IMG/VR virus record: IMGVR_UViG_2869976549_000004
Location: 1 to 14,909 of that record
Source of the DNA: a virus
Lineage: Duplodnaviria; Heunggongvirae; Uroviricota; Caudoviricetes
Direction: 5' to 3' (one strand)
DNA length: 14,909 nt
Of this stretch, positions 1,438 through 5,926 are shown piece by piece. The translations under genes were made by a program, and so were the position numbers. Position 1 is the first letter of the stretch, and every line of letters starts with the position of its first letter. The notes under the pieces were generated by a model. It ran no database searches and was not told the DNA's origin. It saw nothing but the letters and a program-made list of their open reading frames with translations.

Positions 1438-1480
1438 TGAGGTGTACTGGCAATAGCGGACACTACCATTTGTTCTTTTT

Positions 1481-2299
1481 TTAAGCAGCCATCTGATGAT
1501 ATTTTTCCCTGAAGGCTGCCGGGGAGATATTCCCCAGACGAGAGTGACGACGCTGACGATTGTAGAAAATCTCAATGTATTCCCGTATTACTGAGATGGC
1601 TTCATCCCGGTTATTAAAACGATAGTGGCTCAGGCTCTCATTTTTCAGCGTTCCCCAGAAGCTTTCCATCGGAGCGTTGTCGTAACAGTTACCTTTACGC
1701 GACATTGATGTTTTCAGACCAGACTGCTCCTGTATGACCCGGTAATCGTATGCGCAGTACTGTGAACCTCGATCAGAGTGGTGGATTAGCCCGGCAGGTG
1801 GGCGCTGGCTCCTGAGCGCCATAAACAGGGCTTTACCTGTCAGCTCTTTTGTCATGCGCTCTCCCATGGCGTAGCCGACAATTTCGCACGTATAAACATC
1901 TTTGATGCCAGCGAGGTACAACCATCCCTCCTGTGTGGCAACATACGTCAGGTCCGCCACCCAGACCTGATTTGGTGCTGTAGGAGCGAACGTCTGGTTC
2001 AGCAGATTTGGCGCAACTGGCAGATTGTGGTTCGAGTTCGTAGTCGCTCTGAACTTGCGTTTCTGCTTACAGCGTAGCCTTAGCTCCTTACGAAGACGTG
2101 CCAGTCGGTCACGACCAACGATGATGCCATTCTCTGCCAGCTCCGTCTGGAGCCGCCGGGTTCCATATGTTTCGCGAGTGCGGATATGTGCCACCTTAAT
2201 CTCCAGTTTTAGCCGCTCATCACTTTGTTTTCTGTCTGAGGGTTCATGCTGTACCCAGTTGTAATAACCGCTCCTGGATACACCAAATACCTGACACAT
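1481..2299 (-). CDS. IS600 OrfB transposase catalytic part (DDE integrase-like)
   Basis: 272-aa ORF identical to OrfB of copy B. Its upstream OrfA-OrfB fusion region is broken by the IS1 insertion. Confidence 0.85.
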   Translation of the reverse strand: MCQVFGVSRSGYYNWVQHEPSDRKQSDERLKLEIKVAHIRTRETYGTRRLQTELAENGIIVGRDRLARLRKELRLRCKQKRKFRATTNSNHNLPVAPNLLNQTFAPTAPNQVWVADLTYVATQEGWLYLAGIKDVYTCEIVGYAMGERMTKELTGKALFMALRSQRPPAGLIHHSDRGSQYCAYDYRVIQEQSGLKTSMSRKGNCYDNAPMESFWGTLKNESLSHYRFNNRDEAISVIREYIEIFYNRQRRHSRLGNISPAAFREKYHQMAA

Positions 2300-2372
2300 C
2301 GCTTCAATGGGAAATTGGGTGATGCTGCCAACTTACTGATTTAGTGTATGATGGTGTTTTTGAGGTGCTCCA

Positions 2373-2648
2373 GTGGCTTCTGTTTCTATCAGCTGTCCCT
2401 CCTGTTCAGCTACTGACGGGGTGGTGCGTAACGGCAAAAGCACTGCCGGACATCAGCGCTATCTCTGCTCTCACTGCCGTAAAACATGGCAACTGCAGTT
2501 CACTTACACCGCTTCTCAACCCGGTACGCACCAGAAAATCATTGATATGGCCATGAATGGCGTTGGATGCCGGGCAACTGCACGCATTATGGGCGTTGGC
2601 CTCAACACGATTTTACGTCACTTAAAAAACTCAGGCCGCAGTCGGTAA
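2373..2648 (+). CDS. insA: IS1 InsA
   Basis: 91-aa [25 protein letters not shown]..., the zinc-finger/HTH InsA protein of IS1. The A6C frameshift motif (2624..2630) is near its 3' end. Confidence 0.95.
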
Positions 2649-3070
2649 CCTCGCGCATACAGCCGGGCAGTGACGTCATCGTCTGCGCGGAAATGGACGA
2701 ACAGTGGGGCTATGTCGGGGCTAAATCGCGCCAGCGCTGGCTGTTTTACGCGTATGACAGTCTCCGGAAGACGGTTGTTGCGCACGTATTCGGTGAACGC
2801 ACTATGGCGACGCTGGGGCGTCTTATGAGCCTGCTGTCACCCTTTGACGTGGTGATATGGATGACGGATGGCTGGCCGCTGTATGAATCCCGCCTGAAGG
2901 GAAAGCTGCACGTAATCAGCAAGCGATATACGCAGCGAATTGAGCGGCATAACCTGAATCTGAGGCAGCACCTGGCACGGCTGGGACGGAAGTCGCTGTC
3001 GTTCTCAAAATCGGTGGAGCTGCATGACAAAGTCATCGGGCATTATCTGAACATAAAACACTATCAATAA
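2567..3070 (+). CDS. insB: IS1 InsB frame (expressed as InsAB' by -1 frameshift)
   Basis: 167-aa ORF matching IS1 InsB, in the -1 frame relative to insA. Confidence 0.9.
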
Positions 3071-3085
3071 GTTGGAGTCATTACC

Positions 3086-3370
3086 CGACTCCTGTGCAAA
3101 ATACGCTGTTGCTTTTTTTAATATATCTCGCTCAAGGCGAGCTTCATTTAACGCCTTACGCAGTTGCAGAATTTCAGATTCCAGTTCAGCCACCGTGCGG
3201 GAACCAGGAGTACCGAGCCCTTTTCTGGCGGCGGTAACCCATTGTCCTAAAGTGCCTTCAGGAAGAGATAATCGGGAAGCGCCTTCACTGATCGAAAGTT
3301 GATTTTCAGGAACCGTTCTGACAGCTTCGGCTTTGAACTCTTTAGAGTAACGTTGGGTTTTTCTGCTCAT
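3086..3370 (-). pseudogene. IS600 orfA, first 95 codons; 3' end replaced by the IS1 insertion
   Basis: Identical to orfA of copy B up to ...AYFAQES, then diverges into IS1 sequence. Confidence 0.85.
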
Positions 3371-3434
3371 TATTAGCTCCTTCTGATGCCATTCTATTTC
3401 AGGAAGGAGTGTCCGTTAAACTCAGGCTACCTCA

Positions 3435-3471
3435 TTCTGGCGAGTCGTTTTTTGGAGTGTTCGCGGGCTTT
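3435..3471 (-). pseudogene. 37-bp sliver between IS600 copy A and IS21, probably a continuation of the terminase large subunit reading frame
   Basis: After removing IS21 and one copy of the CTTT duplication, the terminase frame continues without a stop (K-A-R-E-H-S-K-K-R-L-A-R) to the IS600 end. Twelve open codons is weak evidence. Confidence 0.3.
3468..3471. repeat. IS21 target-site duplication CTTT (low-coordinate copy)
   Basis: CTTT immediately flanks both IS21 termini (3468..3471 and 5602..5605); 4 bp could match by chance. Confidence 0.5.
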
Positions 3472-3530
3472 TGTCAACGCCACGATGTTTGACCGTTATT
3501 TGCCATTTTCATGCCCGCTAAATACTTTCG

Positions 3531-4331
3531 TTACTGATGCTGTCCGCTTTCCACCATTTCATCATCACTGATTGGCGTTGTGTTTTTGGTCAGCACTCCA
3601 GCTTTACGTTTCTCTTTTAACCGGTAACTCTCTCCTTTGATATTCAGCGTGGTTGAGTGATGTAGCAGCCGATCCAGGATCGCTGTTGCCAGTACGTGAT
3701 CTCCGAACATTTCTCCCCAGTCTGCGAACCCTTTGTTTGACGTCAGTATGATGCTCGCTTTTTCATATCGACGGTTCAGTAGCCGGAAGAACAGACTGGC
3801 TTCCTCTCTGTTCATCGGCAGATAGCCTATTTCATCCAGGATCAACACCCGGGCATAACTCAGTTGCTGTAGCTGACGCTCCAGCCGGTTTTCCTGTTTC
3901 GCTTTCATCAGTGTCGCGATCAGTCTGTCCAGTGGCATAAACAGTACCCGATGTCCCGCATCCACCGCTTTCACGCCAAGAGCTATGGCCAGATGAGTTT
4001 TTCCGACACCAGGAGGGCCCAGCAGGATCACGTTTTCGCTGCGCTCCACGAACGCCAGACCAGCCAGTTCCCGGACAACCTTACGGTCGATGCCCGGCTG
4101 GAAGGTAAAGTCGAACTGCTCCAGCGTTTTGACCCACGGCAGACGAGCCTGCTTCAGCCTGGACTCCATACCGCGCTGATGCCTGCCGTTCCATTCCTGC
4201 TGTAGCGCCATGCACAGGAACTCCCGGTAGTTCAGCTCTTTTTTAGCTGCCTGTTCCAGCAGGCTTTCAACGTGATAACTCAGATGCTCCATTTTCAGGC
4301 GACTCAGCAGGACTTCCAGTTCATGCATCAC
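3531..4331 (-). CDS. istB: IS21 IstB helper ATPase
   Basis: 266 aa with Walker [12 protein letters not shown] and Walker [10 protein letters not shown]; start overlaps the istA stop (ATGA). Confidence 0.9.
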
Positions 4332-5500
4332 AACAGCTCCTCATAGGCACTCAGTGGTCGATGTTCCACCTGACTGACCTGCTGCCAGAGCGGGGCGTGA
4401 TGCTCCGGCACTGTCTGCCAGCCAGACGATGCTGAACAGAGGCGATGTGAGGCCACCAGTTTCTCATTACTGTAGATCCGCAACTCGTCATCCAGCGATA
4501 TTCGTATCGATACCGGCTGACCACACAGCGCTTCGGGAACGCTGTAACGATTACCACCAACCTCGATATAGCTGTCCCAGGACACATGGCGGATATCGAA
4601 GTAACTGGTATCGAAGTCTGTATCCGGTAACGGCTGCAGATGTTCCTGCTCCAGCGCGAAGCGCTGTTCCGGCGTTTCTTTGAACTGGCGAAGCTCCCGT
4701 TTGTCAGCCACATCGGCTATCCATTGCTCCAGTTGTTGATTGACATGAGTGAAGCTGTCGAACCTGCGGTACCGGACGAAGAAGTTCTCCTTGAGGTATT
4801 TCACCATCCGCTCAACCTTACCTTTTGTTCTGGCCCTGCGTGGACGGCATGCCCGTGGCAGGAAGTTATAGTGGTCAGCCAGCAACAGGAATCCGGAGTT
4901 GAACACGACTTTCCCGTTGTTATTCTTCAGCACCGCAGCCTTCTGGTTATCAACCAGCACCGTTTTCACACAACCACCGAAGTAGCGGAAGGCGCGAACC
5001 AGTGATTCGTAGGTATGCTCAGCATCCTGTTTTGGTGCGGCGAAGACATGGAAGCTGCGGGAGAACCCCAGCGTATTAACCGCAAAGTTAACTTTGCACC
5101 GTTGCCCGGCAACCTCCACCTCAACTTCGCCCCAGTCATGCTGGAGCTGGTATCCAGGCTGAGTTTCGAAGCGAACTGTTCTTTTTGACGGACGCATTTT
5201 ACGTTTGGGCTGGATGTAGTAACGCAGCATGGAACGTCCGCCCGTATAACCCATTGCCTTAATCTCCGCGAAGATAACCTCGCTATTCCAGACATTCTCT
5301 GCCAGGCGCATGTCGATGTAATCCATAAACGGTTTCAGCTTAACCATTTTGTGGCGGGTCTTTCTGGCTGGCGGTTCAGGGTATTTGAGGTAGCGTCTGA
5401 CCGTCCGTTCAGAGCAACCAATCTGAGTCGCAATATCGACGATGTACGCGCCCTGCTGGCGCATTTGCTTTATCATGTAAAAGTCCTCTCTGCTCAGCAT
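4328..5500 (-). CDS. istA: IS21 IstA transposase
   Basis: 390 aa, N-terminal HTH plus DDE core; RBS AAGGA upstream of the ATG at 5500. Confidence 0.9.
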
Positions 5501-5601
5501 GTTGATGTCCTTTCTGGTGTGAGAACCTTAAGGAAACAACATGTTGGGTGGAGCGGACAATCCAAATGGCGAATTACCGTCTTATATCACTGGCGCTGAC
5601 A

Positions 5602-5605
5602 CTTT
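5602..5605. repeat. IS21 target-site duplication CTTT (high-coordinate copy)
   Basis: Matches 3468..3471. Confidence 0.5.
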
Positions 5606-5926
5606 TTCCTCCGTCATCTGAATAATCAGCATATCAGCAGGATCGCAAATCACGTTGTAAATCACCCAGCCGTCAATCAGGCCGATAGTCTTGCCGGTTC
5701 GTGCCGGGCCAACAAATATCACTGCGTCGTATTCACGCGAGGCCAGGCAGTTCATCGGCTCAATAACATACGGTGCCACCAGCGGATCCCACGGGACTGA
5801 GTTCCCTGCCCCCATGGGCACCCGCATATACTGAGCAACGGCATCAGCAACCCGCATTCGTCTCGGTGCGCGAAGGATATAACCTGAATCGGTTCGTGCT
5901 GCCTTTGCGGTTTCCTGATTCAGCAT
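5602..5926 (-). pseudogene. Terminase large subunit (lambda gpA family), N-terminal ~108 codons, truncated by IS21
   Basis: Start ATG at 5926 overlaps the small-subunit stop (TAATG). Contains a P-loop (VGPARTGKT) at the position of lambda gpA's KSARVGYSK. The ORF-track stop at 5582 lies inside the IS21 terminus. Confidence 0.75.

Follow-up and report, generated by a model that had tools for sequence, protein, structure and literature searches.

IS600 joins a truncated large terminase gene to the end of a side tail fibre gene in a decayed prophage of Shigella sonnei

Architecture of the terL–IS600–stf joint

The window analysed here is a 14,909-bp stretch of DNA (IMG/VR record IMGVR_UViG_2869976549_000004) that matches the Shigella sonnei 866 chromosome (CP022672.1; genome paper PMC6128377) at 100% identity from end to end; there it starts just past sitD and ends just short of ttcA. 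It contains a joint at which the large terminase gene (terL) of a prophage breaks off at a copy of the insertion sequence (IS) IS600, on the far side of which lies a part of the side tail fibre gene (stf). The late genes of this prophage are on the minus strand. Escherichia coli CFSAN029787 and FDAARGOS_944 carry a prophage at the matching place, between uspF-sitABCD and ttcA-intR, and the window has the neighbours (ttcA, sitABCD-uspF) that mark the pathogenicity island (PAI) sit and prophages of the Rac site. The window is what is left of a lambdoid prophage that occupies the Rac attachment site at ttcA, with sitABCD, which encodes an iron/manganese transporter, at the far end; it represents the phage part of the sit island in S. 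sonnei.

The terL remnant is itself interrupted by IS21, a full-length element with istA and istB. The insertion is framed by a 4-bp target duplication (CTTT at 3468–3471 and 5602–5605), and removal of the element together with one CTTT leaves 358 nt that match nt 1–358 of the intact 2103-nt terL of phage vB_EcoS-569R4 at 358/358 positions. Because CTTT is found on both flanks and excision restores terL exactly, IS21 is a simple insertion. The restored stump consists of 119 codons plus 1 nt and stops at the left terminal inverted repeat (IRL; the right one is IRR) of the IS600 element designated copy A, in agreement with the original prediction, made from the letters alone, that terL runs from 5926 and ends after ∼120 codons at an IS junction. 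The annotated 114-amino acid open reading frame (ORF; 5582–5926) is short only because its frame enters IS21. In a Pfam comparison, the 119 residues of the stump leave the ATPase domain incomplete, and the nuclease domain of gpA-type terminases (PF20454) is absent; intact relatives have 700 residues and both domains. The remnant keeps only 17% of the large terminase.

IS600 copy A spans 1438–3434 and has the ends TGAGG…CCTCA; its two arms (880 and 349 bp) match copies B and C of the window with 0–1 mismatch. Its end lies at 3434 and not at 3439. The longer extent corresponds to a 5-base match between the flanks of copies A and C, produced by a repeat-finder extension to 3439, in which only 3/5 bases agree and which we attribute to chance. 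Copy A is flanked by ggc (1435–1437) and ttc (3435–3437), or GCC and GAA in gene orientation. Copy B is framed by CAC/CAC, a 3-bp duplication, whereas no such duplication is present at copies A and C. As was also predicted, the mismatched flanks identify copy A as the joint of a rearrangement and not as a simple insertion.

Copy A is further interrupted by an IS1 that lacks a 9-bp duplication (flanks gggaaattg and cgactcctg), and IS600 has lost 35 bp here, equivalent to 8875–8909, in which orfA ends and orfB begins. With the IS1 interruption and the 35-bp loss, copy A contains no intact orfA-orfB and is dead as an autonomous element.

The sequence on the far side of copy A (770–1437) had been taken for an unrelated gene fragment. 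It belongs instead to the same prophage, being the 3′-terminal 671 nt of stf, and a DUF4376 gene follows it. Positions 1–1437 of the window are 96–97% identical to the corresponding stf/DUF4376 sequences in E. coli CFSAN029787 and FDAARGOS_944, and the stf fragment lacks the 5′ 598 nt of the 1269-nt gene type or the 5′ 745 nt of the 1413-nt gene type. In CP061367, stf runs uninterrupted across the point that corresponds to 1437/1438. The fragment is the terminal part of the last structural gene in the prophage to which terL belongs, so that the loss is internal and collinear.

The DUF4376 gene has an 8-bp deletion at 388/389 (GACGTGAT in other S. sonnei alleles), by which it encodes 146 instead of 207 amino acids. 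Among the alleles compared, this deletion is confined to strain 866; the five others from S. sonnei lack it. A direct repeat of 22 nt (AATAAAAAGCCCGGGCATTGCG), which may be due to chance, occurs at the stf/DUF4376 junction (779–800) and in the terS–spanin interval (7036–7057) with 82% identity between the copies.

Table 1. Features of the 14,909-bp window and the evidence for their assignment
Feature	Position	Strand	Evidence or remark
DUF4376 gene, at tfa (tail-fibre-assembly) position	201–816	−	aligned to 624-nt gene of relatives; last phage gene before sitD
stf (side tail fibre gene), 3′ 671 nt	767–1437	−	96–97% identity region in E. coli relatives
Junction J1 (stf/IS600)	1437/1438
IS600 copy A, IRR-side arm, 880 bp, orfB	1438–2317	−	inverted repeat of copies B and C, 1 mismatch to each
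IS1, 768 bp, inside IS600 copy A	2318–3085	+	Pfam DDE_Tnp_IS1
IS600 copy A, IRL-side arm, 349 bp	3086–3434	−	100% to copy B 8526–8874
Junction J2 (IS600/terL)	3434/3435
terL nt 322–358, last terminase piece, 37 bp	3435–3471	−	100% to FDAARGOS_944 L005 40399–40436; includes one IS21 duplication copy (3468–3471)
IS21, 2130 bp; istA 4328–5500, istB 3531–4331	3472–5601	−	100% full-length to E. coli elements annotated IS21; Pfam rve/Mu-transpos_C_2 and IstB_IS21
terL nt 1–325, N-terminal part of gpA-type terminase ATPase domain, GPARTGKT motif	5602–5926	−	PF05876 positions 2–79 of 247
terS, small terminase subunit gene (TerS, DUF1441 family), intact	5926–6420	−	Pfam PF07278
Spanin, endolysin and holin genes	7236–8412
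IS600 copy B	8526–9789
Four tRNA genes	9972–10282	−	Gly-TCC, Thr-TGT, Arg-TCT, CAT-anticodon
Q-like DUF1133 gene	10472–11026
DUF1364 and DUF1367 genes	11023–11912
Second IS1	12248–13015
IS600 copy C	13155–14418
Integrase gene (int/intR), last 491 nt	14419–14909	+

The missing block and inheritance of the joint

We aligned the window with the prophage of FDAARGOS_944 (locus L005). Window positions 1–1437 correspond to 20001–21442 of this locus, 3435–3472 to 40399–40436, and 5602–6614 to 40432–41442 at 99.1%. The alignments end exactly at the IS600 ends, and the two flanks of copy A map to 21442 and 40399, which are 18,956 bp apart; the deleted region could thereby be sized against an intact relative, as had been proposed. 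The interval holds 17 complete and two partial genes in the order stf (5′ 745 nt), lom, J, I, K, L, M, tape-measure, T, G, major tail gene, U, Z, two small head-tail genes, protease-capsid fusion, portal, a 70-amino acid W-like gene, and terL (3′ 1,745 nt). The stf and terL flanks have the same order and orientation as in both E. coli prophages of the uspF-sit…ttcA site. In line with the predicted absence of portal, capsid, and tail genes, no ORF for portal, capsid, tail tube, tape measure, or tail tip is found in the window, whereas these genes are present in the relatives.

If the stf fragment were the natural neighbour of the terminase gene in intact relatives, no deletion would be needed, but the 17 complete genes lie between the two in FDAARGOS_944. 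Likewise, in 10/10 other contexts of the identical TerS protein, a 700-amino acid TerL, portal, protease-capsid fusion, and tail genes come next.

The early region is similarly reduced. Compared with E. coli CFSAN029787, the window lacks ∼13 kb of early sequence, and of the integrase, excisionase, repressor, and replication genes only the 3′ end of int is kept. The ORFs for the Q antiterminator, holin, endolysin, spanin, and TerS are open and 96–97% identical, at the sequence level, to those of relatives. Because portal, capsid, and tail genes, the 5′ part of int, xis, and the repressor and replication genes are all missing and terL is reduced to 17%, the remnant cannot excise, replicate, or form particles. 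The original claim that the prophage cannot form particles is thus upheld from gene content, to which the loss of the 5′ part of int and of the xis, immunity, and replication genes is added.

Other S. sonnei genomes were found by exact-sequence look-ups of ORFs that cross the junctions. S. sonnei 53G (HE616528.1), which belongs to lineage II (PMC5447701), has terL nt 1–358 and the stf fragment on either side of a complete IS600 of 1264 bp. Junctions J1 and J2 are base-for-base as in the window, with the same mismatched flanks GAA/GCC. In 53G, terL is free of IS21 and the joint IS600 is free of IS1; a separate IS1 with a 9-bp duplication sits inside the stf fragment. Six further complete genomes resemble 53G, and the joint is found in seven or more complete lineage II-type genomes. 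The joint is therefore inherited and not specific to strain 866. Four changes came later in the 866 line: the insertion of IS21, the IS1 with the 35-bp loss, the DUF4376 frameshift, and a 2.7-kb loss between two copies of IS1. A 121-amino acid ORF that marks the terL/IS600 junction without IS21 occurs in 122 contigs named S. sonnei, and the 866 version with IS21 in 8–14 contigs. Among 5,426 complete E. coli genomes, neither junction gave a full-length match. A scan of species-representative genomes for the stf/IS600 junction found nothing, since S. sonnei is not represented there.

Two further alleles share one junction each with the window: J2 is identical in CP061367 and 53G, and J1 is identical in 53G and lineage III genomes. 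CP061367.1 shows 99.9% identity to the window over copies C, B, and terL and shares the terL/IS600 junction. Its IS600, however, is fused at the IRR end to position 172 of an inverted IS600 fragment, which lies at ∼nt 64 of stf; there is no IS1 in the joint IS600 and no IS21 in terL. The lineage III allele is present in 75/02 (lineage IIIc; PMC5447701), FDAARGOS_90, and other genomes. It has the IS600/stf junction, and the lysis and terminase genes are absent at the locus. After copy B come a partial IS600, the tape-measure gene (3′ end only), M, L, K, I, J, and lom, next the first 312 nt of a different-type stf, an IS21 fragment with a nested IS600, and finally an IS600 without its first 87 bp. 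The locus has thus been rearranged repeatedly within the species, and inversions are also seen here among S. sonnei sequences (L024 and L026 versus L023).

Retention is reciprocal between these alleles, as lineage III keeps M to lom and lineage II (53G, 866) keeps the lysis genes, terS, and the terL stump without tail-tip genes. The 5′ stf piece of lineage III is of another type than the one contiguous with the 3′ part in CP061367 and may derive from a different prophage. At two places, 17975–18150 of L036 (CP061367.1; position 172, inverted) and 12499–12982 of L039 (lineage III; position 482, same orientation), one IS600 copy is entered directly by the terminus of another. Such joints point either to IS insertions that were nested and then recombined or to joining mediated by IS ends. 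Three draft S. sonnei contigs (L043–L045), where a second terminase/portal block comes after IS600, contain a single N at the IS boundary; we consider them probable scaffold joins and discarded them.

Origin of the deletion

That a deletion took place is hardly in question. A natural mosaic or an assembly artefact deserves virtually no credence, as terL and stf are both cut exactly at IS600 termini, the reconstruction of terL is exact, and independent assemblies agree (866, 53G, CP044191, and draft contigs). The original prediction of an IS600-mediated deletion or recombination is accordingly borne out as far as an IS600-anchored deletion is concerned, both by the flanks and by the comparisons; recombination between two copies is its likeliest route only.

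An ancestor of lineage II lost ∼19 kb, from terL nt 359 to the middle of stf, and we infer that this probably happened by recombination between two IS600 copies. Two like-oriented copies, located in terL and in stf, would have recombined homologously and left a single hybrid IS600 with one flank from each site. Because the hybrid copy would keep one flank per site, GAA would be found opposite GCC in place of a 3-bp duplication. The block lost comprised the rest of terL, the 5′ part of stf, lom, the head-tail joining, portal, and protease/capsid fusion genes, and all genes for the tail tube, tape measure, and tail tip. In the 866 line, a clean insertion of IS21 (4-bp duplication) into the terL stump, the entry of IS1 into the joint IS600 with loss of 35 bp, and the 8-bp frameshift in the DUF4376 gene followed. 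The two-copy model predicts reciprocal junctions, which would read …GTACACCTCA/GAACGTTTCGCGTCAGCC in terL orientation and …GGACAAAAGGCC/TGAGGTAGCCTGAG in stf orientation.

Three observations favour recombination between two copies. Each junction occurs alone in some genome: the terL/IS600 junction in CP061367, with stf uninterrupted at the other site, and the IS600/stf junction in lineage III. The stf-side IS600 of lineage III has a private base at position 106 that is absent from the 866/53G copy, which fits a separate stf-side copy. Finally, deletion between homologous IS copies is the accepted route in Shigella (PMC7373316).

Several points weigh against this route. No genome was found in which both IS600 copies, each with its own 3-bp duplication, still enclose the block, and the base differences among IS600 copies do not locate the crossover, being uninformative beyond position 126. 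In addition, end-to-interior IS600 fusions at this locus, in CP061367 (IRR end to position 172 of the inverted copy) and in lineage III (copy B IRL end to position 482), indicate that routes other than plain recombination operate here.

Such a route would be a deletion that started from one end of a single IS600 at terL nt 358, its IRR end being joined to a target in stf without a duplication. This could have been a transposase-driven intramolecular reaction or an excision-enhancer-type process, and it may have taken two steps, first to the 5′ end of stf, giving a CP061367-like state, and then over a further 710 bp. The terL/IS600 junction is indeed fixed while the other one varies (stf nt 599 in 866 and 53G, the inverted IS600 fragment at ∼nt 64 of stf in CP061367), IS600 end-to-interior fusions are known at this locus, and the copies of 866, 53G, and CP061367 are identical at the variable IS600 positions. 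Lineage III, however, has the IS600/stf junction without the terL junction and beside the copy with the private base, which is simpler to explain with an independent stf-side copy. Moreover, IS3-family elements move by copy-out/paste-in, and are not known to produce adjacent deletions frequently without a helper. We therefore regard a one-ended deletion as possible but clearly the less likely origin of the joint.

It is improbable that the block was relocated instead of lost, that is, carried by an IS-mediated inversion or translocation to another place in the 866 chromosome. Many IS-mediated rearrangements are present in Shigella genomes (PMC8072062), the inversions mentioned above affect this very locus, and lineage III has tail-tip genes here in place of the lysis and terminase genes. 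Yet the two flanks have kept their native order and orientation in the sit–ttcA interval, matching the two E. coli relatives, and a single inversion cannot excise an internal segment while the flanks stay collinear; the same joint also recurs in the lineage II-type genomes, at least seven of them complete. A homologue search for the lineage III tail-tip block elsewhere in strain 866 gave no exact 122-amino acid entry.

There is next to no chance that the true joint lies at the IS1 inside copy A, with two IS600 copies each carrying an IS1, 35 bp apart, and IS1–IS1 recombination removing the block. Although this would by itself explain the missing 9-bp duplication and the 35-bp loss, 53G has both outer junctions around a complete IS600 without IS1. 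The deletion consequently predates the IS1, and we rejected IS1 as the joint on the basis of the 53G allele.

The remnant in comparison with known systems

IS DNA amounts to 7,423 bp, or half of the window, and every large loss in the remnant has IS600 or IS1 at its boundary. Copy B, a simple insertion, lies between the tRNA cluster and the lysis genes, 113 bp ahead of the holin start, and separates the Q region from the other late genes. The tRNA cluster–holin interval is the place where the stx genes sit in Stx phages. The tRNA cluster itself lies between the Q-like gene and the lysis genes; its CAT-anticodon tRNA is Met according to ARAGORN and Ile in the annotations of relatives. Copy C is flanked by tag and ttg and has a DUF977-gene fragment and the intR remnant as neighbours. 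Its flank points are ∼13 kb apart in E. coli CFSAN029787, where early region, xis, and the 5′ part of int lie between them, and in CP061367, which retains the adjoining early region, copy C is a simple insertion.

The second IS1 likewise lacks a 9-bp duplication (flanks gagacaaaa and aactcatct). At this site, 53G and lineage III keep a 2.7-kb segment (DUF4014, HNH, DUF551, hok), which in lineage III is bracketed by two IS1 copies. Strain 866 and CP061367 have a single IS1 there, as expected from recombination between two IS1 copies.

It appears highly improbable to us that the apparently intact half-phage that the lineage II allele keeps beside sitABCD (Q, four tRNA genes, holin, endolysin, spanin, terS, and presumably a cos site) is a domesticated module that is still used and not debris of decay. 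Were this the case, packaging by a superinfecting lambdoid helper (866 is a strain unusually permissive to phage) could move sit and its neighbours, or lysis could release other factors. The position of copy B between Q and the lysis genes counts against such a role.

The remnant is an ordinary case of inherited, IS-driven prophage decay, and the observation that started this analysis is confirmed; the kind of event and the island were already known, and the genome is published. It shows cleanly, down to the base, how IS elements pare a prophage of a host-restricted pathogen to the cargo that is useful, sitABCD. Its practical value is modest and it opens no new question. The junctions are exact markers that separate the S. 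sonnei alleles (lineage II 53G/866-type, lineage III, and CP061367-type), and they warn that prophage-calling tools and short-read assemblies will misread the locus.

The PAI sit of Shigella and enteroinvasive E. coli (Fisher et al. 2009, summarised in PMC7545054) places sitABCD beside phage genes in a variable island of 10–34 kb that occurs in Shigella and in certain E. coli. Its phage part in S. sonnei is the window. The review describes the island in general terms only, and the exact joints and lineage-specific alleles were not found in the literature searched, this review (PMC7545054) among it.

The cryptic ("grounded") lambdoid prophages Rac and DLP12 of E. coli K-12 (PMC6379469) are close parallels. 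Rac shares the ttcA/intR attachment site with the remnant, and in Rac and DLP12, as here, morphogenesis and early genes are lost while cargo and some late genes are kept. Unlike in these prophages, the large losses in the remnant are all IS-bounded, and half of its 14.9 kb is IS DNA. It also resembles the defective stx prophage of Shigella dysenteriae type 1, which underwent IS600/IS1 insertion and rearrangement (McDonough and Butterton 1999, cited in PMC6379469; PMC7819885) and is likewise a lambdoid prophage of Shigella, disabled by IS600 and IS1, with its cargo kept. In contrast to that prophage, the window has no stx, and copy B occupies the tRNA–holin space. A further parallel is with the deletions by IS-copy recombination described for Shigella (PMC7373316), which involve the same IS families (IS1, IS600) and leave one IS without a duplication while the intervening DNA is lost. 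From these deletions the joint does not differ in kind, and the window serves as one worked example of them.

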